Positions 2,991 through 64,000 of a DNA stretch of 64,000 bases are shown here, one piece after another. The number at the start of each line of letters is the position of its first letter. Within the stretch, counting starts at the first letter, position 1. The notes under the pieces were generated by a model. It was not told the DNA's origin and ran no database searches. It worked only from the letters and a program-made list of their open reading frames with translations. A program made the position numbers and the translations under genes. Origin of the DNA: a virus; the UHGV virus genome UHGV-1376660, one strand, 5' to 3'.

Positions 2991-4565
2991 TCACTCGGTC
3001 TCTTGAGTAGATGAGTCCCCATTCCCTCGGGGTTGATCTTGCCCGCTTTCTTGGGCTATACCTCGATCATAAGTAAGTGCTGACTTATTTTCAAGAGTGT
3101 TAAGATCATTTTTTGGAGGAAATTTCAAGAGATCTTTTTGAAATTCCTTTTGCATCGACTCGGAAATGTTCGGGAAGACCTTCTCGATGAGCATTTCCAT
3201 CTGATGACGACGCACAGAATCAGGCGCCTGGAGCAGCGACAGTTTCTCAGCAACGGCGAACTCGTCAGTCAGACCGCGAATGTCGAAACTTTCCGGGTAC
3301 GCGATCAGAGAGTGGTCTTCATCCAGTTCGACACCCATCCATTTCGCTGCCAGCTGCATCATCTGGCGTTCTGCCCTTTCGAGGCGCTCTGCTTTTGTCA
3401 CCAGCAGACTGTTAACGCGCTGGAAGTCGTACATCTTCGCTGCGCCCGAAGAGTTATCGATGCCCTGTGCGTTATCCTGCTTGGTTCGCTCACCTGCCAC
3501 ACCAACGGAATGGTAGATCTCGTTAATCACCGTCTTAATCGTGGTGATGATCATCTGAGCCTGTTTCGGGTCTGGAGACAGGTAGAATGGCTGATTACCG
3601 CTCTCAGAATCGAAGGTGAAGACGCGTTTTGTCCCCATTTCGAGCACTTTGGTGTGGTTTTCATCGCCCGGCAGCAATGACTGAACCGGGATCGCCAGCT
3701 GGCTGAATGTCTGATCCTGAATAATCGCGTCAAGGTTCGACAGGTAGTTGGCCACGGCGCGGTCAAGATAGGCGATATCATCAATCAACGACGGGCTGAA
3801 ATACGGAGACTCGCTTTCGCCAATGCAATCCACCGGAAACACCGGCACCACGCCAAGATTATGCTGGCCGCTATCCTCCAGAACGACTTTGGCCTGACGA
3901 CGACCGCTATTTCCGGAACCTTTCTTCACTTCTTCACGGAAGAGATACCACTCGTTTTGCGTCCACAGACGGTAACGCTGGTATTCCTGCCCGGTTGACG
4001 TGAACGGATCTTCGTCGTCGCGCGCGATTTCAACAATCAGCGCCCACAACATATTGCCGTCTTCATCCCAGGCAACATCAAGCAGCTGCTGCGGCGAAAT
4101 CCAGTAAGCGTAGGCACGCGCATCATTTTTCTTCTCGTCTGCAACAGACTCAACATCGACGTTCATGGTGCTGTCCACGACAACCCAGATACGGCCATAA
4201 ATGGATGATTGCAGATCGATAGCCGCCATAAACGCATCGATGGAGGCGTTCTGGCGCGTGGCTCGCTTCCAGAAATTGCGGATCTGCTCCGGTGCTTCAT
4301 CAGTGTTGCGGTGAATGACCTCTTTGAAGAGGTATTTGTTGATGAGGTTTACCACTTCGCGCGTATGGTTGAAGCGATAAGCGCGTTCCAGGCGCTCTTT
4401 GAACTCCTGATCGCCCTCTTTGAAGTAACGGAAGATATTGTCGTTGAACCAGGCACGCCCGCCAGCGTAGGTGCTGGCGAGGAAGTCCCAATGTTCTTTT
4501 TTCTTCTCATATTCAGGGTGGCGTCGTGCCACAAGGTCTTTGATTTGCTTGTCAGTCAATTCCAT
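2991..4565 (-). CDS. Portal protein
   Basis: 524 aa, immediately downstream of terminase large subunit; size and position typical of portal. Confidence 0.7.
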   Translation of the reverse strand: MELTDKQIKDLVARRHPEYEKKKEHWDFLASTYAGGRAWFNDNIFRYFKEGDQEFKERLERAYRFNHTREVVNLINKYLFKEVIHRNTDEAPEQIRNFWKRATRQNASIDAFMAAIDLQSSIYGRIWVVVDSTMNVDVESVADEKKNDARAYAYWISPQQLLDVAWDEDGNMLWALIVEIARDDEDPFTSTGQEYQRYRLWTQNEWYLFREEVKKGSGNSGRRQAKVVLEDSGQHNLGVVPVFPVDCIGESESPYFSPSLIDDIAYLDRAVANYLSNLDAIIQDQTFSQLAIPVQSLLPGDENHTKVLEMGTKRVFTFDSESGNQPFYLSPDPKQAQMIITTIKTVINEIYHSVGVAGERTKQDNAQGIDNSSGAAKMYDFQRVNSLLVTKAERLERAERQMMQLAAKWMGVELDEDHSLIAYPESFDIRGLTDEFAVAEKLSLLQAPDSVRRHQMEMLIEKVFPNISESMQKEFQKDLLKFPPKNDLNTLENKSALTYDRGIAQESGQDQPRGNGDSSTQETE

Positions 4566-4598
4566 TTGCTTTTCCTTTCCGTTTAGGTAAGTACTTAC

Positions 4599-5855
4599 CT
4601 ATCTAGATCCGCCAAGAATAACACGATTTTTCACCGGATACCTACGATGAACCGGATAACCCAACGCATCCGCACTGTGTTCGATGCCGCCAGTCTTATC
4701 CATATCGCGTGAGCCTGGCTTGTAGATCACCTTCTCCAGCGAGTCGATGAGGTGTTTGCACTTCGGATCGATGTACAACCGTGTTTCGCCCGAGGCACTC
4801 ATCAACATGCGGTTCACTGCATTCACACGGTCTGCGATCGGCGGGTGCTTCTTCGGATAATCGACTCGAAGGAAACCTTTTTCCTTGAAGATATCGACGT
4901 CCGATTCGCCGCGTGCGTGCTGGCGATACGCACCAGCCGGGTCAGGGAAGATAGTGACCAGAGACTTCCAGCGCCAGAAACGGCGCTCCAGCTCATCACA
5001 CACTTCAGCCGTGTTGGAAGAGAACAGCACAACCTCGTCCACGGCCCACAACTCGCCATTTGGCTGCGGCTGCAGGATGACCGATGACATAGGGTCGATG
5101 TTGAAGTCCTGACCAACCCAGATCGGCAGTTTCGGATTGAACTGGAGTGGCTTCACATGCACATTGCGGTCGAACGGGTAGTAAACGCGTCCGGACATGT
5201 TTTCGAAGCTGGCCAGGTATTCCTGTGCGAACGATTTAGGGTCCATATCGTTCTTCGCTGCTTCGATTTCCGCGCTCGGTACGAACGGAGAATCAGCCGT
5301 AACGAACTGCCAGCTTTTCCACTGCCCCTTGCGTTGCAAATCTTTGTTCTGACCGATAGTCCACAGCTTGTGGAACTCGGAGAAGCCTTTTGGCGTACCG
5401 ATGATCAGCGCACCGCCACGGGTAGAGGACAGTGTCGGACGTAGTACCTTGTACCAGGTGTCCGGCTTCATATCCTGAAATTCATCGAGCACCACAAAGT
5501 GCAGTGCCACACCACGAAGCGTATCGGGCTTATCCGCACCTTTCAGCGCGATTTCAGAGCCGTTCTTCAGCACGATGGTCATCGTGGTGTCGTTTTTCTT
5601 ACGAACCCATTTACGAGGCAGAACTTCCTGCAGGTCATCCCACAAGATCTGGCGAGCCATCTGGTAAGTCGGTGCGACGTACCAGACACGTTGCTTTTTC
5701 TCTTTGGCTGCCGCGCGGATGATGGTGGAGATCGACAACCGGGATTTACCCCAGCGTCGACCCGCACACACCACTTTGAAACGATGTGGCGACTGGAAGA
5801 CTTGCATCTGCCCAGAATGCAGCTGTACGAGACTCAGAGACGACGGGATGGCCAT
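4599..5855 (-). CDS. terL: Terminase large subunit
   Basis: Walker A-like VVCAGRRWGKS near the N-terminus; 418 aa with C-terminal nuclease-like region; follows a small HTH protein. Confidence 0.85.
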   Translation of the reverse strand: MAIPSSLSLVQLHSGQMQVFQSPHRFKVVCAGRRWGKSRLSISTIIRAAAKEKKQRVWYVAPTYQMARQILWDDLQEVLPRKWVRKKNDTTMTIVLKNGSEIALKGADKPDTLRGVALHFVVLDEFQDMKPDTWYKVLRPTLSSTRGGALIIGTPKGFSEFHKLWTIGQNKDLQRKGQWKSWQFVTADSPFVPSAEIEAAKNDMDPKSFAQEYLASFENMSGRVYYPFDRNVHVKPLQFNPKLPIWVGQDFNIDPMSSVILQPQPNGELWAVDEVVLFSSNTAEVCDELERRFWRWKSLVTIFPDPAGAYRQHARGESDVDIFKEKGFLRVDYPKKHPPIADRVNAVNRMLMSASGETRLYIDPKCKHLIDSLEKVIYKPGSRDMDKTGGIEHSADALGYPVHRRYPVKNRVILGGSR

Positions 5856-5857
5856 AG

Positions 5858-6499
5858 TTAGACGCTCCCATCACTTTCATCACCAGACGCGTCAGAATCG
5901 CCCTCTGCTTCGCTCAGTGCTTCCTCTTCGAGTGACTCAAGCAGATCGTCATCAATCAGATCCGGCTCATCATCTTCCTTACGCAGCTGCGCCACCTGGG
6001 AAGGCGTAAGTTCGCCAAATACCAGGTTCGGGATTTCGTCTTCTTCGTTCTCAGCGCGATCCATACCGAGCGCTTTCGAGGATATTTCGAAGCACTTAGC
6101 GAGTGTGCCGCTGGCACGCTGGAGACTCTTCAGGTCATCTTCGATGGTTGCGAGTGGCTTGCCGTCCTTCTTGGCTGTGGCCACCTCATGCATCACCATC
6201 CGACCGAGTGCGAATGCCCAATCGTCGTAACGAGTCCGGCGCTCTTCGATTTTCTCTGCACGCGCCTTCGCACGCAGCTCTGCGTCGGATTTGAGCGACT
6301 CGCGCACCATCTTCCCAACGGAGTCCGCGCCTTTCTCTAATCCACGCTTTTTGAAATGTCTGGAGAGCGTTTCACGACGAATGCCGTACTCTTCCTCCAG
6401 CTTGGAGAGTGTGTATTCGCCGGAAGTCCACTTTGCTTCGGCTTCTGCCCACTCAGCTGGCGTCAGGCGAGTTTTGCTCTCGTCTTTTTCTACAGTCAT
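5858..6499 (-). CDS. terS: Terminase small subunit (HTH DNA-binding)
   Basis: 213 aa; N-terminal HTH-like YGIRRETLSRHFKKRG; acidic C-terminus; immediately upstream of terL. Confidence 0.6.
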   Translation of the reverse strand: MTVEKDESKTRLTPAEWAEAEAKWTSGEYTLSKLEEEYGIRRETLSRHFKKRGLEKGADSVGKMVRESLKSDAELRAKARAEKIEERRTRYDDWAFALGRMVMHEVATAKKDGKPLATIEDDLKSLQRASGTLAKCFEISSKALGMDRAENEEDEIPNLVFGELTPSQVAQLRKEDDEPDLIDDDLLESLEEEALSEAEGDSDASGDESDGSV

Positions 6500-6565
6500 A
6501 GATCCCTCTAAAACACTCAGAGCGCATCCTTGCGCTCCTAAACAACTTGTTTAATTCTGTGCCTA

Positions 6566-6700
6566 ACCAATTTGTTTTCTGGGTGTTTAAAACCGGGCTG
6601 GGGAGTATTCAGAACCTGCTTCCGTATATATTTAATAAGTCACTTAGTATTTATATATACGGAAGCAGGCTCTCAAACTGGCTCCCAGACCGACTTACAT
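6566..6700 (-). promoter_or_regulatory. Sigma70-like promoter (TTGAGA-N15/17-TATAAA/TAAATA) embedded in a long AT-rich inverted repeat, upstream of terS; copy 1 of a ~90-bp repeated element
   Basis: Minus strand reads GTCTGGGAGCCAGTTTGAGAGCCTGCTTCCGTATATATAAATA...TATATACGGAAGCAGG; near-identical element at 32470-32560. Confidence 0.5.
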
Positions 6701-16386: not shown

Positions 16387-16400
16387 GGTGATAATCCTTT

Positions 16401-16433
16401 AAACAACTTGTTTTCTTGTTGGTTTAATTATCG
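16401..16433 (-). promoter_or_regulatory. Conserved early promoter/operator motif (AAACAAnTTGTTTTCTTGTTGGTGTTATTATC family)
   Basis: Minus strand reads GATAAT(-10-like)-AACACCAACAAGAAAACAAnTTGTTTA-SD-ATG. Confidence 0.6.
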
Positions 16434-16591
16434 CTACGCGCATAAGGCGTCCAAGCGTTCTGTTCCGGTAGCTGGTGGCCGGCAGGGAGTCGGAGGGTTA
16501 TTAGGTAGCCTGGCGGTAAGAGGTGGGTGTTTTTAGCCTGCGGGAAACAGGATGGCCATTTAAGGCCACCAGCATGGGTGGCCTCGTTCTC

Positions 16592-16881: not shown

Positions 16882-16915
16882 CCTCCATGCGTAAACATCT
16901 TGTTTTCTTGTTGGT
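16882..16915 (-). promoter_or_regulatory. Conserved early promoter/operator motif copy
   Basis: TAAACATCTTGTTTTCTTGTTGGTGTAATTATCG. Confidence 0.6.
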
Positions 16916-16998
16916 GTAATTATCGCAAGCGGATAAGGCAAAAAACATTTTGTTATCGGGAATAAGAAAATGGCGCGGGATACGCGCCATTGCAGTGA

Positions 16999-17841: not shown

Positions 17842-17875
17842 TAAACAACTTGTTTTCTTGTTGGTGTAAATAATA
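17842..17875 (-). promoter_or_regulatory. Conserved early promoter/operator motif copy
   Basis: GTAAACAACTTGTTTTCTTGTTGGTGTAAATAAT. Confidence 0.6.
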
Positions 17876-17906
17876 CAGAGCTGAAAACGGGATAGAACCA
17901 ATCTAT

Positions 17907-18776: not shown

Positions 18777-18811
18777 CTAAACATGTTGTTTTCTTGTTGG
18801 TGTTATTATCG
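18777..18811 (-). promoter_or_regulatory. Conserved early promoter/operator motif copy (best -10, CGATAAT)
   Basis: CTAAACATGTTGTTTTCTTGTTGGTGTTATTATCG. Confidence 0.6.
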
Positions 18812-18903
18812 CAATAAGAAAACGGGGAAAAAGAATTCCTTAAAGGCTGATGTGCTTGTGCCGATTTATTGCTATGTATGTATCTGGCTAACTCAGAGGG
18901 AAT

Positions 18904-22583: not shown

Positions 22584-22619
22584 TAAACAATTTGTTTTCT
22601 TGTTGGTGTTATTATCTCA
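22584..22619 (-). promoter_or_regulatory. Conserved early promoter/operator motif copy
   Basis: TTAAACAATTTGTTTTCTTGTTGGTGTTATTATCTC. Confidence 0.6.
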
Positions 22620-22657
22620 AATAACAAAAGGCAGAAAACAAGATGTTTAAGGGATGA

Positions 22658-25158: not shown

Positions 25159-25252
25159 CATTCTTAACTCCGTTGTTTTCTGGATGCAGTTATTTTCGCA
25201 GATAAGAAAAGGTAGAAAACAAATTGTTAAAGGCCACAATAGTGGCCTTCAT

Positions 25253-28348: not shown

Positions 28349-28384
28349 TTAAACAAATTGTTTTCTTGTTGGTGTTATTTTCCC
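28349..28384 (-). promoter_or_regulatory. Conserved early promoter/operator motif copy
   Basis: TTAAACAAATTGTTTTCTTGTTGGTGTTATTTTCCC. Confidence 0.6.
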
Positions 28385-28479
28385 AAAGTTGAAAAGGCGT
28401 AAAAGCAGCATTCACAGGCGTTGCAGCTGATTTAAGGCGTAAAAAGGGGGGCTTTCGCCCCCTGTCGGCAGGTGAGAAA

Positions 28480-29079
28480 TTAGTGGTGTACGTGCTGCGT
28501 TTTGTGCGGCTGTTTGTTCAGGTCGTGGCGATGGGTCAGCTCGCGCATCATGTCTTCAAGACGGCTCTTGGTGTCGTCAAGCTGGTCGGCCATTGCCCCC
28601 AGCAGCTGGCGAACGGCCATCGGATCGTCGCTGTTCAGCTCAGGCATTTTGAATCCAGCCTGGGAAGACATCAGTTTGAAGGCGGCCAGCAACATCGCCA
28701 GAGAAGACTTCAACCCGGCGATTTCACGATCTTTGCTGGCGTTGGTTTCATCTGCCTTGACTGAATCCGGTGAGCACTTCGGCTTGCTTACCATTTCCAG
28801 AGTTGCCTGAAGTTTGTCGGCGCGTTCTTTCTCTTCCAGATACGCTTCGCCGAAATGACGCGCCAGCATCACAATTTCAATCGGATCATCAATCATGCTT
28901 GAGAACTTGAGAACGCTGAAAAGGCGGTCGATAGGGGAGGCGTCGTCTTCGTGACCAACCACAAGACCCATGATCTCAACCAGTTCGGCCGCACCAACTT
29001 TTTTAATCACGCTTTCAACTTTGGCATTAGTTTTTTTGCATTTTTCGCACATGTGTTTTTTCCTTATGTTTTTAAACAA
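28480..29079 (-). CDS. Hypothetical protein
   Basis: 199-aa ORF behind promoter-motif copy 29071-29106. Confidence 0.4.
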   Translation of the reverse strand: MFKNIRKKHMCEKCKKTNAKVESVIKKVGAAELVEIMGLVVGHEDDASPIDRLFSVLKFSSMIDDPIEIVMLARHFGEAYLEEKERADKLQATLEMVSKPKCSPDSVKADETNASKDREIAGLKSSLAMLLAAFKLMSSQAGFKMPELNSDDPMAVRQLLGAMADQLDDTKSRLEDMMRELTHRHDLNKQPHKTQHVHH

Positions 29080-29106
29080 GTTGTTTTCTCGATGGCGTTA
29101 TCGTGG
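29071..29106 (-). promoter_or_regulatory. Conserved early promoter/operator motif copy (degenerate)
   Basis: TTTAAACAAGTTGTTTTCTCGATGGCGTTATCGTGG. Confidence 0.5.
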
Positions 29107-29160
29107 CGTGACTGAAAAGGTGGGCAAACGCTACGTAAAGGCGGACGCCCACACTGACGG

Positions 29161-30017: not shown

Positions 30018-30084
30018 GTTGTTAACTCTCATTGGTTGATTGGCTAAACAATTTGTTTTAACAGTGCCGAAAAGAGATTTGGCA

Positions 30085-30901: not shown

Positions 30902-30933
30902 AAAATGATAGGTAAATACTTACCTATCATTTT
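30902..30933. promoter_or_regulatory. 22-bp palindrome element AAAATGATAGGTAAATACTTACCTATCATTTT (family consensus ATAGGTAAGTACTTACCTAT)
   Basis: One of at least 16 copies in the window, always intergenic. Confidence 0.6.
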
Positions 30934-33149: not shown

Positions 33150-33334
33150 TATTTTGCTCTGATAGGTAAATACTTACCTATTTTTTCATTTAATCCAACG
33201 GATAGCAAACAAAGAAGAACGCGCCAGATTCGCAAACGGGAAGCTCTCTGGCGCGTTTTATCGATGCTGGGTATGCAATTAGCTTACCCAGCGTCCTAAA
33301 GCTCTCAGGGGGCTTTAGATCGGGTAGGGGAACA

Positions 33335-40305: not shown

Positions 40306-40340
40306 TTAAACAAATTGTTATCTTATTGGTTTAAACAAGG
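40306..40340 (-). promoter_or_regulatory. Conserved early promoter/operator motif copy upstream of nrdB
   Basis: TTTAAACAAATTGTTATCTTATTGGTTTAAACAAGG. Confidence 0.5.
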
Positions 40341-42737: not shown

Positions 42738-42743
42738 CATGTT

Positions 42744-42769
42744 AATAGATAAGTACTTACCTATCAATT
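42744..42769. promoter_or_regulatory. Palindrome-family element AATAGATAAGTACTTACCTATCAATT
   Basis: Sequence inspection. Confidence 0.55.
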
Positions 42770-48899: not shown

Positions 48900-49440
48900 G
48901 AGAGGGGGTTACTATCCACTATGGGGAGGAAAGTAACCTCTGTAGAGAGCATAATAACCGCTATGAAGAGCAAAACAACCTCTCTGGAGAGTGGTCGGTA
49001 TCCACTGTAGTGAGTAGGAGACATTGTCTTAACTGGATAACTCAGTGCCTGTATTTCTACGTCAGGTGGCTGATATTCATAGAGATGTTGGAAGGTTTGC
49101 GTTCAGGCGTGTTTGTTTCGACCACACATTATCCCCAGAAGGGGAGTAATGGCTGGTTTTGCAATTACCTGATTTTTATACACAGGCCCGATCCAGTAAT
49201 TCAGATCCCAAAGAGAACCAAAGAGACCCACAAAGACCCAAAAAGATCCCCGCACCCCGCAAACCGTTGTGCCACATGGCTTTAGAGGTGATCACTATCC
49301 ACTATAGAGAGAAGATCAGCCACTATGAAGAGCAAACCAACCACTGTAGAGAGTAGAAAAACCACTATAGGCGGTAGGATAACCGCTGTGATGAGTGCTA
49401 CTATCCACTGTAATCAGTAAAGGCCACCAAAGCCGTCGAA
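48900..49440 (+). repeat. Upstream iteron arrays (two sub-clusters, at least 10 copies of CCACTrTrGAGAGTAG-type 16-19-bp repeats; several resemble DnaA boxes, e.g. CTATCCACT)
   Basis: Direct repeats read from the sequence. Confidence 0.75.
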
Positions 49441-50514: not shown

Positions 50515-50519
50515 CCCAA

Positions 50520-51120
50520 CCACTGTAGAGAGTAGAAAGGCTCACTATCCGCTGTAGTGGGCCTTTTGTTTATCTGAAATCAGCTATCCACTGTAGTGAG
50601 TAACAACAACCGAAGAGTAACCACTGTAGGCAGTAGTGCTCAAATAACGAAATAAATGTTAGTGGTTACAAACATAGATGAAACAAGGGCTGCGAGGTTA
50701 GTGGTCACTGGGTGACTTGTTAAATCCACTCTCTATAGTGGTTATCGTTGCTCCCTTCGCTATTGGCTATCCACTGTGGAGAGCAGAACCGGTTGGCTGG
50801 ATATACTATCCACTGTGGAGAGTAGATATCCGCTGAAAACAGTGAAGGTTTACTCTCCATAGTGGATACCCGCTGGAGGGCGCATTCCATCACTCTCTAT
50901 AGTGGTTGTTTGCTGCGAATAAACGCCTGTTTACTCTCTACAGTGGATAGCGACGCCGATAAACGCCACTTTACTCACTACAGTGGATACAGGATGTCAC
51001 GACAGGAGTTTACTCACTACAGTGGTTGGGTTGCATACCTGAATGGCGCTCTACTCACTACAGTGGTTATGAGCCGGATACGCACGCGGTGAGCTGGCTA
51101 CTCACCGCAGTGGTTAGTGT
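50520..51120 (+). repeat. Downstream iteron array (about 12 copies, both orientations: CCACTGTAGAGAGTAG / CTACTCACTACAGTGG)
   Basis: Direct and inverted repeats read from the sequence. Confidence 0.75.
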
Positions 51121-53078: not shown

Positions 53079-53112
53079 TAACCAATTTGTTTTCTTGTTG
53101 GTGATAATATGG
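53079..53112 (-). promoter_or_regulatory. Conserved early promoter/operator motif copy
   Basis: TAACCAATTTGTTTTCTTGTTGGTGATAATATGG. Confidence 0.6.
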
Positions 53113-53115
53113 AAA

Positions 53116-53140
53116 TAAAAAAGGCGTCCAAGTGGACGCC
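53116..53140 (-). terminator. Rho-independent terminator (GGCGTCCAAGTGGACGCC + T-run on the minus strand); stem family reused at 54256 and 56594
   Basis: GC-rich stem, A6 on plus gives T6 on minus. Confidence 0.6.
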
Positions 53141-58467: not shown

Positions 58468-58692
58468 ATGAAGAAACATTCGAACAAGCACATTCAAGCG
58501 GCCATTGAATATGCTTTAGACCAAGGCTGGGTTTGGGTTGCACCGGGCGATTCTGCTCACTGCTTTTGCAGGTTGCGTTGTGGCAATCCAGAAGGTGAAC
58601 ACCGAGATCACCAAATGAGTGTATGGTCGACGCCGAAAAGTGCTGAAAACCATGCCAAGCGAATCATAAGCACCGTAAAACACTGCAAGTGA
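58468..58692 (+). CDS. hicA: HicA-like mRNA-interferase toxin (YcfA family)
   Basis: LDQGWVWVAPGDSAHCF parallels the HicA GW..V...GSHH.F core; 74 aa; first gene of a two-gene plus-strand cassette. Confidence 0.45.
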   Translation: MKKHSNKHIQAAIEYALDQGWVWVAPGDSAHCFCRLRCGNPEGEHRDHQMSVWSTPKSAENHAKRIISTVKHCK

Positions 58693-58771
58693 TTTTGCCC
58701 GGTAAGGAGTGGCGACAACCACTCCTTACCGAATATAAGAGAATACTCTGAATACTAAACGAAGAGGTACT

Positions 58772-59335
58772 ATGGCGCTTTATAACTTCACTCTGACACT
58801 CTCAGGCGTAACGTATGAGACCGAAGGACTGGAAGACGCGCTGTACGAAAGCGGCTGTGACGATGCGCTGATTTGCGCATATGGAAACTCCGTCTATGTT
58901 GAGTTCGACCGCGAAGCTGAATCGCTGGATGCAGCTATTGCATCAGCGGTCGACAATATCGAATCAGCCGGAATCGGCGCTATTGTTGAATCTGTCGACT
59001 CTGCCCTTGTAGGCTTGAGCGACATTGCAGAAATAACAGAAATGTCTCGCCAGGCGATTGCGATGCTGAAAGATGGCACTCGTGGTAGCGGAGACTTCCC
59101 TTGCCCTATCCAACGAATCAAAGGCCAATCTCCACTTTGGGATTGGGCTGATGTAGCCGAATGGCTACTAAAGAACGGTCGATTAAAAGAAGACAGCAAC
59201 TTGGTAAATAACGCTCGTGTGCTGAGTAAATGGAATCTTGCCTTACGTGCAAGCGCTTCAAAAGATTTTCAAGAAGTTGAGTCGATCGCGGTAGCTCTTA
59301 TCGCACGTCGACGTCATCACGCCGAATGCGCATGA
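58772..59335 (+). CDS. hicB: HicB-like antitoxin with C-terminal AlpA/HTH_17-like DNA-binding region
   Basis: N-terminal YNFTLTLSG...EGLEDALYES (HicB/UPF0150-like), C-terminal LSDIAEITEMSRQAI...WDWADVAEWL HTH. Confidence 0.4.
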   Translation: MALYNFTLTLSGVTYETEGLEDALYESGCDDALICAYGNSVYVEFDREAESLDAAIASAVDNIESAGIGAIVESVDSALVGLSDIAEITEMSRQAIAMLKDGTRGSGDFPCPIQRIKGQSPLWDWADVAEWLLKNGRLKEDSNLVNNARVLSKWNLALRASASKDFQEVESIAVALIARRRHHAECA

Positions 59336-59364: not shown

Positions 59365-59808
59365 TTATGCGACTTTCTTACCAAAAATGTTGGATAGCGT
59401 GACTCTGGTCTGGCGTTTCAGCCTGTACTGCCTCACATCGCCAATCTTGTTCACTTCCATAAACTCTTTGGCCACCTTCAGCACCAGCCGATTGCGGAAC
59501 ACTTTGAACGCCTCCAGCTGTTCCTCTGGGTTATCCGATTCGTAGATCTCCAGCAGATACTGGCACGCCTTCGGATCTTGCGTTTTAAGCGCCAGCGCTC
59601 TGGCACATTTACGCAAACGACTGACTTTGTCGGCACCATCCAGCCCGGCGAACGCCAGCGCCAGATCTAACGTGACCGGACAGTCGATGATTTCCCAGAA
59701 CTGCGACCGCATGGTGGCCGCAACTGCTTTATCCTGAAAATCCGCTGGGATAGCCGCCAGCGCTTGTGCAATCTTCTGTGCCTCGTTCATGGTGTTCTCT
59801 TTATTCAT
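59365..59808 (-). CDS. Hypothetical protein
   Basis: 147-aa ORF, 4-nt overlap with the DnaE C-terminal segment. Confidence 0.4.
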   Translation of the reverse strand: MNKENTMNEAQKIAQALAAIPADFQDKAVAATMRSQFWEIIDCPVTLDLALAFAGLDGADKVSRLRKCARALALKTQDPKACQYLLEIYESDNPEEQLEAFKVFRNRLVLKVAKEFMEVNKIGDVRQYRLKRQTRVTLSNIFGKKVA

Positions 59809-60974
59809 TTGCTAATAGTCTCCGCTACCTCTGCCAGAATTGCTTCCAGCTTTTCGCCTTCTTCTGGGCGAAAGTACAAAATGTTTGGGTTAAATCCGTA
59901 GAAAACGGTCACATCCAGCTCCGGCAGATACTCTTTGCGTCCAACCAGGTCGGATGGTTTGTTCTTGTTGTTGAAGAGTGACGTCGCCCGGCTGCCACAC
60001 GTCAGCACATAGGTCGGACGCACCAGATTGACCTCTTCACGCATAAAGTCGGTGAACTGGCCGATCTCGTCTTTGGTGTAGTCCTTCTCTTTGTCCTTCA
60101 CCTTTTTGCACACGCCGGTGACGTAGAGATCGCCCATGCGCAGATCGCCTGCAGTAAGCAACTTCGCTTTAAAGTCGTCGTAGCCGTTCTCCATGAAGTA
60201 ACCGGTACGCCCATCATTGCCGTTCGCGTTGTCCAGAATGACCATGATTTTCGGCTTAATGCCAATGCTTGGGCGAATCAGGTCGTCTCCCAGACCCATT
60301 TCGGCCGCCATGCGAGTCATCAGTACATTCACCTCGGCAGAGCGCTTAGGGTTCATCTCGAACGGTCGAGAGGCTTTTACAGCGTCGATCACCAGATTGC
60401 CCATCAGCTCTGCCTGGTCGCGCAGACGTTCCGGGTCTGTCGCTGGCAGACTGCCAGGCTCAATCGATGCGAACGCACCTACTTTTTGCAGTGACTCGCG
60501 TACCCGGCTGTTACATGCACGCTTCTCGACCGATTCCTCGAATTGCGCCAGCGATTCGAATTTTCCGCCAACTTTCTCACGTGCTCTCATGATGGCCTGG
60601 CATCCGTTCTCAGAGCAGCCTTTCACAGCAGAGAATGGCGCATACAGAACCTGGCTGCCGTCTTCTAGCGTGCGGATCTCAATTCGGTTAGATGACACGT
60701 TAACGTCTGGTGGCAATATGCGAATACCATAGGTCAGCGCATCCTTAACCAGCCCTTGGTGCTTATCCTCGCCCAGAATGGTGAGAGCTGCAGCGAAGAA
60801 TTCAGCAGGGTAGTGCGTCTTTAGCCACATAGACTGATAGCTGATCAGCGAGTAGGCAACGGAGTGTGATTTGTTGAAGGCATACGCGCCGGATTTCTCA
60901 AACATATTCCAGATTTCTTCGGCTCGTTCGTGCGTCAGGCCATTACTCTCTTCAACAACACCGGTAATTTTCAT
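59805..60974 (-). CDS. dnaE: DNA polymerase III alpha (DnaE-type), C-terminal segment (exon 2 or a separately translated fragment)
   Basis: ERAEEIWNMFEKSGAYAFNKSHSVAYSLISYQSMWLKTHYPAEF aligns with E. coli DnaE [45 protein letters not shown]. Confidence 0.85.
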   Translation of the reverse strand: MKITGVVEESNGLTHERAEEIWNMFEKSGAYAFNKSHSVAYSLISYQSMWLKTHYPAEFFAAALTILGEDKHQGLVKDALTYGIRILPPDVNVSSNRIEIRTLEDGSQVLYAPFSAVKGCSENGCQAIMRAREKVGGKFESLAQFEESVEKRACNSRVRESLQKVGAFASIEPGSLPATDPERLRDQAELMGNLVIDAVKASRPFEMNPKRSAEVNVLMTRMAAEMGLGDDLIRPSIGIKPKIMVILDNANGNDGRTGYFMENGYDDFKAKLLTAGDLRMGDLYVTGVCKKVKDKEKDYTKDEIGQFTDFMREEVNLVRPTYVLTCGSRATSLFNNKNKPSDLVGRKEYLPELDVTVFYGFNPNILYFRPEEGEKLEAILAEVAETISK

Positions 60975-61705
60975 GCAGTCACCTCATCAATCTTCATGAA
61001 CTCATACCCATTGGACACCAGCCAGTCCCGCTGGCGCTCCCAGCTCCATACCTCTTCACGCATTTCGCTATGCAGACGAATGTGAGCGTCTTCTGGAAGT
61101 GCTACCAGATTCCCAGGGGCGTTATCTACCGTGTCGCGGTTAAGGTGGTGGACATGTTCATCGTCACGTAGCTCCCGACCGAGATGTTCTTTCGCTATCA
61201 ACCGATGAACGTATTCGTATTGCGAAACGCCATTGTTACCAACCAGCTGCATCATGTAGCCGTTGGTTTTTATGATGACGCCACCTTTGTAGTTGTTCGC
61301 TTCTTCTCCGGTCTTTCCGCGTTTGGCAGCCGCCAGCTTTTCCTTCGTCTCTAGGCGGATTGTTCTGCCGGTCAGCTTTTTCGAAACGGTGGCCACTCGC
61401 TCATCGGTATCAGCACGCAGCCCTGCATTCCACGAGGTTTTCCCATACATAGGGTTGCCAGCGCCAGCCCGGGCTTCGGAGAGTCGCTTTATGCGTTCGT
61501 CATTATTTTTGTTTTTGCCACGATTCCAGGCTGGGGTAGCGGAGATCCGCGCGTTTCCGCGCCTGATCCCCCATTTGGCTAATAAGCGATCGATATTTGC
61601 CTTGCTGCAACCAGCTTCGGCGGCAATGTCTTCTTTTCTCATCAGGTCAACCATGTAACGCTGGCGTAACCATTCTTCTGTGATTTTGTACTTCGTACCC
61701 GGCAT
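60971..61705 (-). CDS. HNH homing endonuclease inserted within dnaE
   Basis: HNH motif HVHHLNRDTVDNAPGNLVALPEDAHIRLH; own copy of the early promoter motif at 61719-61750; stop overlaps the ATG of the downstream dnaE segment. Confidence 0.85.
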   Translation of the reverse strand: MPGTKYKITEEWLRQRYMVDLMRKEDIAAEAGCSKANIDRLLAKWGIRRGNARISATPAWNRGKNKNNDERIKRLSEARAGAGNPMYGKTSWNAGLRADTDERVATVSKKLTGRTIRLETKEKLAAAKRGKTGEEANNYKGGVIIKTNGYMMQLVGNNGVSQYEYVHRLIAKEHLGRELRDDEHVHHLNRDTVDNAPGNLVALPEDAHIRLHSEMREEVWSWERQRDWLVSNGYEFMKIDEVTA

Positions 61706-61718
61706 TTCAAAAACTCAC

Positions 61719-61750
61719 TAAACAAATTGTTTTCTTATCTTATAAATTAA
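61719..61750 (-). promoter_or_regulatory. Early promoter/operator motif copy (degenerate) driving the HNH gene, located inside the dnaE intervening sequence
   Basis: CTAAACAAATTGTTTTCTTATCTTATAAATTAAC. Confidence 0.5.
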
Positions 61751-61753
61751 CTC

Positions 61754-64000
61754 TCAAATATCGAAGCTCGTTATGTCGGCATTTATAGCCATTGCTTCGG
61801 CATAAGTGCGACGCTCACCATCAGCGCAAAGTAGGCGTGCTGCTTTATGAATTTTCCTCGTAGAACCGTCATCCAGTGACACTGTCACCCAGCCTTCCTC
61901 CGCTCGCTTAATGAAGTTGCCGCCAATGGATTTCATTTTCTCCATATCTTTTTTCCCGATCGCTTTCCTGACCGAGTCTGCTTCCGCCATAGAGAACCCC
62001 GCCAAGATTCGCGTAGCAGCCATGATCTGTTCCTGATAAATCAGAACGCCGTTTGTGTCGCGAGAGATGTCGTCCAGCATTGGGTGTAAGGAATGTGGAG
62101 CCATGAAGCCTTTGGCCACGGAGACATAGTCGTCCAACATGCCGGATTGAATCGGGCCTGGTCGGAAGAGTGCGGTCGTGGCGACAACGGTTTTGAAGCT
62201 CATTGGCTCAATACCACCGCCAATATCTTTAAGCAGCTTGCGCATAGGGCCGGACTCCAGCTGGAATACGCCCTGCGTGTACCCTGCAGCGAACCCATCC
62301 AGAACCTTGCGATCGTCCAGTGGGATAGCATCGAGATTGATGTCTTCCTCGGTACTCTCTTTGATGTAGCGTTTCGCGCTATCCAGCAGATCGAGCGTTG
62401 CCAGACCGAGAACGTCCAGCTTAATCAGCCCCATCGCCTCGCAGTAACGTTTATCGAACGCAATACAGCGAGCGTTGCCACGCAGCTCGACGGGAGTGCG
62501 CTCTACCAGTGGAACGCCAGCGACGATCATCCCCGCTGCGTGACGGCCAAAACCACGCATCAGGCTTTGCAGCTTACATGCCGCTTTGAACGCTTCCGGG
62601 TTTTTCGTGGCGTATTTGTCTAGGCTGGCCAGTTGTTCGCGCAGCTCTTCCAGCGGCAGGCTATCGTCCTCCAGATTCTTGAACTCTTTGGATACCGCCA
62701 TATCCGCAGCGTCTACACCGTAAATACGCGCAGTGTCACGCAGCGCAGAAGCCGCGCCCAGATAGGTGAAGTTCGGAATACCGGCAACGTAATCTTCTCC
62801 ATAACGTTCATTCAGATACTCGATCACCTCATGACGACGTGCCTGGCTGAAGTCCAGATCCGCATCCGGCAAGTCGAGACGTTCAGGGTTAATGAAACGC
62901 TCAAACAGAAGACCGTGACGGATAGGATCGACGTTGGTTATGCCGATGCACCACGCCACCAGAGAACCGGCAGAGGAACCACGACCTGGCCCGACAGGAA
63001 TGCCAGTTTCACGGCTGTGATTCATCAGGTCGCGCACCATCAGGAAGTAACCGCAGAAGCCCAGGCGGGTCAGCGTGTCCATTTCGTACTTCAGACGATC
63101 AACATACACGCGGTGCTCAGAAGCCGGTGGTGTGTAACCAAACTCTTTGGTAGTAAGACGCTTGCGCAGCCCCGCGACAGCCAGCTTCATCAGCGTTGCA
63201 GGCTCGTCGTCTGCCATCTTGGGCAGTGCTGGTGGCAATTCATGCCAGCGCCATGTGCAGGCTTCAATAATGGTGTCCTGCGTTGTTGAGGCCATTGCAG
63301 CTGTTACAGGTACATCCATGCGAACGGAGAAGGCTTTCAGCGCTTCAAGGAGATGGCGGCGACCATTAACGGCGTTATCTCGCTGGTGGGGAATACGCAG
63401 ACGATGCGGCTGGTCGATTTTGATGTTGTTCGTAACCATGTGCGCAATGTCTTTAATGTCAGCGTCGTCGACCGCTTCGTAATAAGCGGGATAGAACGCC
63501 ACTGGCTCTATTTTCAGTGCGCTCGCCACTTTCATCGCCCGGACGTTAATCTGGTCGTAGAATGGGGTAGGGTGCGGATAAACCACGCTGTAGAAGTTAT
63601 CGCGTCCTCCAACTGTCACCAGCGTCCCGATAATCTTTGCGAAGTCCCGGCGCTGGAATACACTGCCAATGTCGGACGTCAGCAGGATGATGTTGCCTTT
63701 GGCATATGCGGCCGCCAGCTGGTCAAGTGCCAGACGCGGGACAAAGTAGAATTGCTCGCGCTTGTTGGCTAAGGTCATCAGTTCGCACACGTCGCGATAA
63801 CCTTGCTCATTCTTTATCAGTGCCGTGAAGCAGTAGCTGCGATCACGCACCAATGATTCCATACATCCTCCTGACTCTTTCGCCAGGCGGGCGCGGTGCT
63901 CGTATGTCGGATCGTCGACCACATTCAGCTTAACACCACAAATAACCGCCATGTCGTCGCCAGCGGCACGCTGCAGGGGGATCACACTGGCAATGTTCAT
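61754..64000 (-). CDS. dnaE: DNA polymerase III alpha (DnaE-type), N-terminal segment; continues beyond the window
   Basis: PHP and palm-domain motifs GIPVGPGRGSSAGSLVAWCIGITNVDPIRHGLLFERFINPERLDLPDADLDF; LIYQEQIM...; homology to DnaE ends at ...FIKRAEEG (about nt 61892), followed by 45 unrelated codons before the stop. Confidence 0.9.
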   Translation of the reverse strand: MNIASVIPLQRAAGDDMAVICGVKLNVVDDPTYEHRARLAKESGGCMESLVRDRSYCFTALIKNEQGYRDVCELMTLANKREQFYFVPRLALDQLAAAYAKGNIILLTSDIGSVFQRRDFAKIIGTLVTVGGRDNFYSVVYPHPTPFYDQINVRAMKVASALKIEPVAFYPAYYEAVDDADIKDIAHMVTNNIKIDQPHRLRIPHQRDNAVNGRRHLLEALKAFSVRMDVPVTAAMASTTQDTIIEACTWRWHELPPALPKMADDEPATLMKLAVAGLRKRLTTKEFGYTPPASEHRVYVDRLKYEMDTLTRLGFCGYFLMVRDLMNHSRETGIPVGPGRGSSAGSLVAWCIGITNVDPIRHGLLFERFINPERLDLPDADLDFSQARRHEVIEYLNERYGEDYVAGIPNFTYLGAASALRDTARIYGVDAADMAVSKEFKNLEDDSLPLEELREQLASLDKYATKNPEAFKAACKLQSLMRGFGRHAAGMIVAGVPLVERTPVELRGNARCIAFDKRYCEAMGLIKLDVLGLATLDLLDSAKRYIKESTEEDINLDAIPLDDRKVLDGFAAGYTQGVFQLESGPMRKLLKDIGGGIEPMSFKTVVATTALFRPGPIQSGMLDDYVSVAKGFMAPHSLHPMLDDISRDTNGVLIYQEQIMAATRILAGFSMAEADSVRKAIGKKDMEKMKSIGGNFIKRAEEGWVTVSLDDGSTRKIHKAARLLCADGERRTYAEAMAINADITSFDI

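Follow-up and report, generated by a model that had tools for sequence, protein, structure and literature searches.

A two-piece dnaE gene in an SSU5-like phage-plasmid, with a free-standing HNH endonuclease gene at the break of a putative split-intein remnant

The gene for a DnaE-type replicative polymerase in the UHGV virus genome UHGV-1376660 was analyzed within a stretch of 64,000 nt (the window; coordinates are positions in it unless a locus is named). All genes of this dnaE locus lie on the minus strand, as three successive open reading frames (ORFs): dnaE-N, an HNH endonuclease ORF and dnaE-C. Sequence comparisons support a two-piece dnaE gene that is cut by a free-standing mobile endonuclease gene, and not an intron. 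We consider it likely that the endonuclease gene sits at the break of a decayed split intein and that the two polymerase halves reassemble non-covalently.

A dnaE gene in two pieces

The backbone of the window is that of an SSU5-like phage-plasmid, with 95.8% nucleotide identity to Salmonella phage SSU5 outside the insert, and the same region also matches SSU5-like phage-plasmids of Escherichia and Klebsiella. The dnaE-N gene (61754-64000) encodes the N-terminal piece of DnaE, comprising the PHP, palm and thumb domains and most of the fingers. It terminates in a TGA stop codon at 61754-61756; 748 of its 787 amino acids are encoded inside the window, the first 39 codons lying past the window end. 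The complete protein has 787 amino acids in relatives, and ORFs of the same length were found in loci L002, L004, L005 and L007. It is 94% identical to amino acids 40-776 of SSU5 DnaE. A spacer of 48 nt (61706-61753) separates the dnaE-N stop from the start of the endonuclease gene, termed HEG-A (60971-61705, 244 amino acids). The dnaE-C gene (59805-60974, 389 amino acids) encodes the rest of the fingers including the FNKSHS helix, a helix-hairpin-helix domain (HHH_6, E 7e-17) and a C-terminal domain resembling uracil-DNA glycosylase. Its product is 93% identical to amino acids 784-1172 of SSU5 DnaE, and a 389-amino acid ORF is also present in L002, L004 and L012. The gene has its own ATG and Shine-Dalgarno sequence: the start, MKITGVVEESNG, is preceded by GAGGTG, as the preliminary description had proposed, and the ATG overlaps the endonuclease stop codon as ATGA. 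The domain order is that of a DnaE protein, with homologs carrying PF02811, PF07733, PF17657 and PF14579, and the polymerase matches the E. coli and Taq Pol III alpha structures in phmmer and Foldseek searches.

The complete HNH ORF previously noted in the gap was confirmed. HEG-A consists of an N-terminal helix-turn-helix (HTH), two NUMOD3 motifs (PF07460, E 1e-6) and a C-terminal HNH_3 nuclease domain (PF13392, E 2e-8), and it matches phrog_21964 from end to end. The gene is intact in five copies, with dN/dS values of 0.17-0.37.

In a phmmer comparison with PDB chains, residues 670-730 of E. coli Pol III alpha aligned with the window DnaE up to ...FIKR, and residues 731 onward from EESNGLTHERAEEIW. 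The points at which homology to E. coli had been said to stop and resume are thus correct, and E. coli DnaE runs through the gap without a break. Relative to E. coli, the window DnaE has 56 extra residues, placed between G730 and A731. The preliminary description had favored a group I intron with an embedded HNH gene as the most economical reading, and, for a split-gene alternative, had taken the end of dnaE-N as 45 unrelated C-terminal residues. These residues are conserved coding sequence, aligning with residues 744-787 of the uninterrupted SSU5 DnaE: the window tail GWVTVSLDDGSTRKIHKAARLLCADGERRTYAEAM pairs with SSU5 GWIDVEMEDGTTQRIHRAEHFKCEDGALRTVEEAL, and Met1 of dnaE-C pairs with SSU5 M784. 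Uninterrupted dnaE genes, encoding 1168-1216 amino acids, are found in SSU5, phage Cyrano, two Kluyvera plasmids, Xenorhabdus szentirmaii and Morganella. The 45-residue tail together with the first 12 residues of dnaE-C is conserved across all SSU5-type DnaE proteins, the uninterrupted ones included. Window tail and head, once concatenated, run colinear to ten contiguous homologs; their I|M junction lies inside a hairpin-like stretch. The comparison with intron-less homologs, which had been suggested as a check, therefore speaks against splicing, since N and C pieces are already colinear with contiguous DnaE proteins including the 56 residues. Splicing at FIKRAEEG|LTHERAEE would remove these conserved residues, and the intron reading is not supported.

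The insert consists of 48 nt plus an ORF and other alleles have tiny spacers, so that no room is left for a ribozyme core. An Rfam 15 scan of 60500-62400 (E<=10), which takes up the earlier suggestion of a covariance-model search for a group I core, returned no Intron_gpI and no group II match, and gave four chance-level matches (snoRNA, miRNA, lncRNA). dnaE-N ends in a conserved stop codon, and dnaE-C begins at a conserved ATG with a Shine-Dalgarno sequence. The T4-type split gene, which had been named as the alternative, is supported, with its two ORFs and its C-piece start; only the idea of an unrelated N-piece tail does not hold.

Ribosomal bypassing of the T4 gene 60 type was also considered. 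In three alleles, the codon in front of the dnaE-N stop is found again among the first six codons of dnaE-C (ATT, GTT and ATG; window 61757-61759 and 60966-60968, L002 3742-3744 and 4482-4484, L012 4259-4261 and 4498-4503), a superficial likeness to take-off and landing codons. We judge this to be a chance recurrence of short hydrophobic codons and reject bypassing, since the gaps measure 69-780 nt, far more than the 50-nt bypass known from T4 gene 60 (bioRxiv 10.1101/2022.08.31.505936).

Kinship of the insertion with DnaE inteins

The insertion is absent from the nearest outgroup phage DnaE proteins (P0159, P0160 and P0167), which read through like E. coli. Its N-terminal side (61757-61891) consists of the 45 amino acids WVTVSLDDGSTRKIHKAARLLCADGERRTYAEAMAINADITSFDI and matches that half of an Int-N which contains block B and ends at the natural split site; its C-terminal side (60939-60974) is the start of dnaE-C. 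AlphaFold2 confidently predicts the insertion as a small sheet with a helix (pLDDT 96.1 when the domain is modelled by itself, 85-95 within 279 residues of context). At the start of dnaE-C, the ten residues MKITGVVEES are predicted as a long β-strand that finishes the sheet of the N-terminal side (AlphaFold2 strands 130-139 and 57-64, pLDDT >90), and this strand would be the equivalent of the first strand of an Int-C.

Foldseek searches with the model returned, beyond Pol III alpha, nearly exclusively inteins, with the Npu and Ssp DnaE inteins first. A hidden Markov model (HMM) of the insertion, searched against PDB sequences with hmmsearch, matched 7qil (E 1.3e-5), Npu DnaE (9e-4) and Npu Int-N constructs (2e-3), and further DnaE inteins fell below 3e-3. 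The match covers residues 62-115 of the fused DnaE intein 7qil, through ...DLMRVDSSGDTKIATREY, and runs across the join of the two intein halves. The natural split site thus falls within the match, which places both the gene split and the endonuclease where split inteins are split. The endonuclease domains of inteins are always inserted at this conserved split site as well (PMC6801210). The HINT fold thus spans the junction, with the break at the conserved site of endonuclease insertion and splitting. De novo TIM-barrel proteins that also appeared in the HMM search were set aside as repeat-driven, no single stretch of them passing. The kinship is apparent only with a family profile and with structure; in Pfam scans, single tail or mini-domain sequences gave only sub-threshold matches to SH3, Tudor and DUF families.

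By profile and by predicted structure, both the sequence and the fold of the insertion are homologous to the middle portion of DnaE-type inteins. It carries no catalytic motifs. Block A with Cys1 is missing: about 57 N-terminal intein residues are absent, and DnaE homology continues up to the remnant, the first residue of which is a conserved Trp (Phe, Tyr or Met) after an invariant Gly. For the block-B TxxH histidine, the gapless HMMER alignment places TKDH opposite the consensus v-h-r-a-e, so that the intein His stands opposite Glu and the conserved His of the family faces the intein Thr. Neither blocks F and G (about 25 C-terminal residues) nor a terminal Asn nor a +1 Cys, Ser or Thr was found in the alignment of the remnant family. 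From the split to the renewed DnaE homology there are about 12 residues, which are variable (EESNG, SEQEG, AEHNG, EDKPG). The halves of split inteins show an acidic/basic charge pattern (PMC2677866). The remnant family agrees with this pattern: the terminal strands of the N-terminal side carry net charges of -2 to -5, and most first strands of the C-terminal side +2 to +3. We take the 56 residues to be a probable split-intein fossil, the remaining role of which would be to keep the two halves joined.

The insertion might instead be an unrelated small beta domain of the SH3 or Tudor type that tolerates a cut in a hairpin, its likeness to inteins being convergent; the split-gene model would be unchanged by this. 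We regard such a convergence as unlikely in view of the profile match to a DnaE intein at E 1.3e-5 with others below 3e-3, the structural searches that independently return inteins, and the position of split and endonuclease at the conserved intein site (PMC6801210).

Alleles, cassette import and function of the halves

The split point is conserved among alleles with either of two endonuclease types (A and B), with a decayed type B, or with none. Endonucleases A and B have only the HNH_3 nuclease domain in common. In Buttiauxella p1WJP83, ORFs of 787 and 389 amino acids are separated by a 69-nt spacer without an endonuclease gene, which consists of the HNH start codon joined to the final ~25 nt of the HNH gene. 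Klebsiella phage GArcari-2022b has the other endonuclease at the same split, a protein of 233 amino acids with NUMOD4, HNH_3 and a C-terminal HTH; its start overlaps the dnaE-N stop, and 21 nt separate it from dnaE-C. In Xenorhabdus hominickii, the dnaE of which is ~60% identical, a 233-nt spacer holds a 72-amino acid, internally deleted remnant of endonuclease B. This ORF (strain DSM 17903, L012 4268-4486) has kept a NUMOD4-like start, MKEIWNRIPDFEENYEVS, as well as the HTH at the C-terminus, FGISSTQIANILK, but no longer has the HNH core, and is apparently a homing endonuclease in decay.

In the metagenomic relative L018 (phage-like Logan SRR27947036 contig, 3091-6597), dnaE is divided into three pieces. 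Its second junction corresponds to the split of the window, with a 166-amino acid HEG-A homolog (30% identity, E 2e-17) and the same ATGA overlap with the C fragment. At the first junction (FQFES|CLAGDS ... IVVHN|SGMRKLL), a 255-amino acid HNH_3 gene stands between an Int-N and an Int-C, and this arrangement looks like a complete, apparently active split intein. A further HNH_3 gene lies just upstream of the L018 dnaE, and P0013 and P0016 represent the same Int-C-bearing middle piece. N-side fragments and such middle pieces were revealed by a protein search with a 221-amino acid query (short proteins only).

The MK(I/V)xxV start of dnaE-C is conserved in the split alleles, and uninterrupted alleles have deletions of 4-8 residues exactly at the junction. 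The uninterrupted genes of SSU5 and Cyrano are probably re-fusions. dnaE-N fragments of 784-792 amino acids with the same end point share 88, 81, 71, 68, 67, 61, 58 and 55% identity with SSU5, and the clusters of such fragments can be large (P0155 with 1105 members, P0163 with 383). A profile search of 1.84 billion representatives yielded at least 17 N-fragment clusters (50% identity) of 745-791 amino acids in which the match ends at the C-terminus, one more of 966 amino acids, and only 1 contiguous representative. Multi-stretch matches of this search to very long proteins (P0178, P0187 and others) were discounted, as they are probably due to repeats.

The distribution of the insert was followed in plasmids and phages. 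It is 99.3% identical to plasmids of Enterobacter asburiae and E. ludwigii, ~96% to pLF82-like plasmids of E. coli and 90% to Cronobacter plasmids. The cassette was found in 25 plasmid records. Of 5,426 complete E. coli genomes screened, 238 have a plasmid-borne SSU5-like dnaE, 23 of them with the cassette. The replicons bearing the insert are ~106-115 kb in size and non-mobilizable, except for one 198-kb record that is predicted to be conjugative. A distant blastn search against INPHARED phages gave no match to the insert; the cassette was seen only in the plasmid and E. coli genome collections.

Compared with the dnaE of SSU5 and Kluyvera, the window shows 97-100% identity, but only 45-69% (where alignable) between ~62110 and 60850. 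Over this tract the window is 94-99% identical to pLF82-like plasmids of E. coli, the backbones of which share 72-96% with it. The dS of HEG-A between the window and the E. coli copies is 0.08-0.10, and that of the flanking dnaE is about ten times higher (0.6-1.2). Mosaic identity, low dS of HEG-A and patchy spread together are the signature of homing with co-conversion of flanks, which is known for phage endonucleases (PMC2988022). The identity pattern indicates that the endonuclease gene and ~470 nt of flanking dnaE were imported into an SSU5-identical backbone; the putative co-conversion tract (60850-62110) includes ~350 nt of dnaE upstream and ~120 nt downstream of HEG-A.

Between split lineages, dN/dS is 0.03-0.06 for dnaE-N and 0.02-0.07 for dnaE-C, and 0.15 for tail plus head. 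These values alone do not prove function, since the backbones may have diverged partly while contiguous. Stronger evidence is provided by the ORFs themselves: both are intact in every split allele examined, including those in which the endonuclease gene is absent or decayed.

A disabled polymerase gene would be a different explanation. The endonuclease insertion would have destroyed dnaE, host enzymes would replicate the plasmid, and the ORFs would be intact only through recency. The annotation of dnaE-C as a pseudogene by PGAP and the recent import of the cassette into this backbone fit this view, as does the gross dnaE damage that is tolerated elsewhere (a putative insertion sequence in Yersinia pestis L013, a 5' deletion in Buttiauxella gaviniae L010, the hybrids P0143, P0150 and P0172). 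The intact ORFs in all split alleles stand against it. Tails and heads are only ~45-55% identical, yet stop, start and strand pattern are kept at an omega of 0.15, and the split N pieces are numerous, with 1105 members in P0155 and 383 in P0163, and fall into 17 or more clusters at 50% identity. Taken together, a disabled gene appears decidedly improbable.

Damaged dnaE loci were noted as follows. In Y. pestis NCTC5923 (L013 5184-7071), two ORFs of 340 and 260 amino acids interrupt the 3' part of a contiguous dnaE; they resemble insertion-sequence genes. In B. gaviniae (L010 4434-5526) most of dnaE is deleted, and the last ~303 codons remain beside an AAA ATPase gene. In four hybrid proteins (P0043, P0143, P0150 and P0172; E. 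coli, Logan), DnaE sequence is combined with a RecA-like PF00154 segment. In P0043 this segment comes after the initial ~63 amino acids of dnaE-C, and the other three have N-terminal DnaE domains and a RecA domain. These hybrids are probably deletion or recombination variants of SSU5-like plasmids in which the polymerase gene is destroyed.

For the two-piece polymerase we propose the following course of events. The starting point would be an ancestral dnaE with a split intein that housed an endonuclease, as at the split-intein junction still present in L018. Splicing would then have been lost, and the intein trimmed to its interface strands. dnaE-N and dnaE-C would be translated separately, dnaE-C being coupled to the endonuclease via the ATGA overlap. 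The first strand of dnaE-C (MKITGVVEE) may dock on the sheet of the N remnant and thereby rebuild the fingers domain without a covalent bond. The endonuclease would cut endonuclease-free alleles in co-resident or co-infecting relatives and be copied, with flanking dnaE, by double-strand-break repair. Uninterrupted alleles would arise by re-fusion. A wider proposal, towards which we are evenly poised, is that a large clade of phage and phage-plasmid DnaE proteins uses a domesticated split-intein fossil, stripped of all splicing residues and of ~60% of its length, as a non-covalent clamp formed by its two interface strands. The site would serve as a lasting landing pad for successive endonucleases, and the split would be ancestral and dominant, with uninterrupted genes re-fused.

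Several points weigh against the proposed two-piece polymerase with an intein remnant. The C head of the window is neutral (0) and not basic. Much of the dN/dS divergence may date from contiguous backbones, the cassette being horizontally mobile. PGAP annotates dnaE-C as a pseudogene, a call that stems only from the lack of an N-terminus. Polymerase activity and assembly of the halves are inferred, as is the order of split first and re-fusion later.

The remnant could also be a working, extremely reduced split intein, the halves being ligated by protein trans-splicing or by non-canonical chemistry. The HINT homology with a split at the canonical site, the very high conservation of the remnant and the related locus, where another part of dnaE has a split intein that is apparently active, would be in line with ligation. 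The remnant, however, lacks intein residues ~1-57 and 116-140, begins with a conserved Trp after Gly, has neither a conserved terminal Asn or Gln nor a +1 Cys, Ser or Thr, and places non-His consensus residues opposite the block-B His. Moreover, the 56 residues are kept in-frame in contiguous alleles, which would be unexpected if they were excised. We therefore give trans-splicing very little credence. A group I or group II intron with an HNH ORF, the spliced transcript of which would give one DnaE, deserves hardly any weight at all: HNH endonucleases do occur in group I introns of the polymerase genes of phages SPO1 and SP82 (cited in PMC2988022) and E. coli DnaE is contiguous across the gap, but beyond the lost conserved residues, the lacking ribozyme space and the negative Rfam scan, alleles with a 69-nt spacer or with an overlap plus 21 nt retain the same two ORFs, and at least 17 distant clusters have conserved both the stop and the start codon.

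Known systems and other features of the window

The two-piece dnaE with its endonuclease gene has several counterparts. Both the split nrdA of phage Aeh1 and the split gp43 of phage 25 yield active two-piece enzymes (PMC2988022). As in nrdA-a/mobE/nrdA-b of Aeromonas phage Aeh1 (Friedrich et al. 2007, reviewed in PMC2988022), a free-standing HNH-family gene splits an essential replication-related gene. Each Aeh1 piece is translated on its own, the two come together as an active enzyme, and related phages have an uninterrupted gene (PMC2988022). In contrast to Aeh1, the gene concerned here encodes a C-family (DnaE) polymerase of a temperate Enterobacterales phage-plasmid and is split in an intein-derived insertion instead of native enzyme sequence; this split has a long history and a wide distribution, two or more endonuclease types having occupied the site. 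The split gp43 (43A/43B) of Aeromonas phages 25 and 44RR is likewise a replicative polymerase in two pieces (PMC2988022). Phage 25 with an endonuclease gene between the pieces and 44RR with a short untranslated spacer parallel the window and the Buttiauxella allele. The gp43 pieces co-purify and are active (PMC2988022). Unlike the window polymerase, gp43 belongs to the B family, its endonuclease is of the seg (GIY-YIG) type, and no intein-like module has been reported at the split.

Fractured genes with split inteins and free-standing endonucleases, among them three metagenomic DnaE loci, were described by Dassa et al. (2009, PMC2677866). Their order of host-N plus Int-N, endonuclease gene, and Int-C plus host-C, seen in phage-like replication genes including dnaE, resembles the locus studied here, and the first junction of L018 is of this kind. 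However, the split inteins of Dassa et al. have six HINT motifs and five catalytic residues and trans-splice, whereas the window has retained ~56 central residues and no catalytic ones. The split DnaE inteins of cyanobacteria (Ssp, Npu; PDB 1zd7, 2keq, 4kl5) give the best matches to the remnant in sequence and structure, reside in the same host protein and have a homologous HINT break. A charge contrast between the strands of the N- and C-terminal sides is present in most of the pairs examined. The cyanobacterial intein site lies just before FNKSHS, ~24 residues downstream of the site in the window. The cyanobacterial intein is complete and catalytic, is encoded by two genes at distant loci and has no endonuclease. 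Finally, the introns of Bacillus phages SPO1 and SP82 (I-HmuI/I-HmuII; Landthaler et al. 2004, cited in PMC2988022) also place an HNH endonuclease in a phage polymerase gene, with co-conversion of flanks. These are self-splicing RNA introns that restore one ORF; the window, in contrast, has no detectable ribozyme and two ORFs with their own stop and start.

In the literature, of which coverage was incomplete, we found no account of a natural non-splicing intein remnant kept as an assembly module, and none of this dnaE split in SSU5-like elements; both negatives are no more than absence of evidence. Splitting by homing endonucleases and splitting by inteins have so far been regarded as two separate solutions of one problem, and the locus appears to link both, as a fractured gene in which the endonuclease niche is still active and the split intein has decayed to an assembly module without catalysis. 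It would offer a natural test of how far HINT domains can be trimmed and still join protein halves, which bears on split-protein engineering without splicing chemistry. With endonuclease-containing, endonuclease-free and re-fused alleles in plasmids of E. coli, Klebsiella, Enterobacter and Salmonella, it is also a tractable Enterobacterales system for homing that is both intron-less and intein-less. Pseudogene calls on the C half in RefSeq plasmids may mislead on whether SSU5-like phage-plasmids carrying resistance genes are functional phages.

The preliminary description had credited the HNH gene with its own copy of a promoter motif. A real repeat is indeed present upstream of the ORF, at 61719-61747 within the 48-nt spacer; a simple sigma-70 and terminator scan of the region stayed at the level expected from shuffled sequence. 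The copy belongs to repeat family D4, which is akin to D1, D2 and D5, and its exact 28-mer is unique. The motif family has about 10-13 copies in the window, ~30-45 nt long, reading TAAACAAnTTGTTTTCTTGTTGG / TAAACAAnTTGTTTTCTTGTTGGTGTtAT on the plus strand with the palindromic core AAACAAnTTGTTT. Besides the copy in the spacer, they are located at 6564-6592, 16400-16443, 16892-16935, 17842-17885, 18778-18821, 22584-22627, 25165-25208, 28350-28393, 29073-29116, 30045-30073, 40307-40335 and 53079-53122. The copies examined directly precede the Shine-Dalgarno sequence and ATG of minus-strand genes, and the motif is kept in the Buttiauxella spacer without the endonuclease. It may be a phage-specific promoter, operator or leader element.

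Two further kinds of repeats were observed. A 27-nt palindrome-like sequence, TGATAGGTAAGTACTTACCTATCA (family D3/D8/D15), occurs in 13 copies within 1146-57773, for example at 30906-30932, 33160-33186 and 42743-42769, and may be a regulator binding site. At 48913-49396 and 50516-51069, direct repeats resembling CCAACCACTGTAGAGAGTAG (D6, D7, D10) are clustered in both orientations with a spacing of ~21 nt; these clusters look like plasmid iteron or partition-site arrays.

The end of dnaE-C (59805-60200, ~130 amino acids) resembles the uracil-DNA-glycosylase superfamily (PF03167, E 0.013, under the Pfam cut-off). The PF03167 domain was also seen on the homologs P0038, P0144 and P0159, and the C fragment is listed as a uracil-DNA glycosylase in some records. 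Such a domain is an unusual fusion partner for DnaE. Downstream of dnaE, at 58468-59335, the window has ORFs of 74 and 187 amino acids; in phage Cyrano, the genes directly downstream of dnaE are annotated as HicA toxin and HicB antitoxin.

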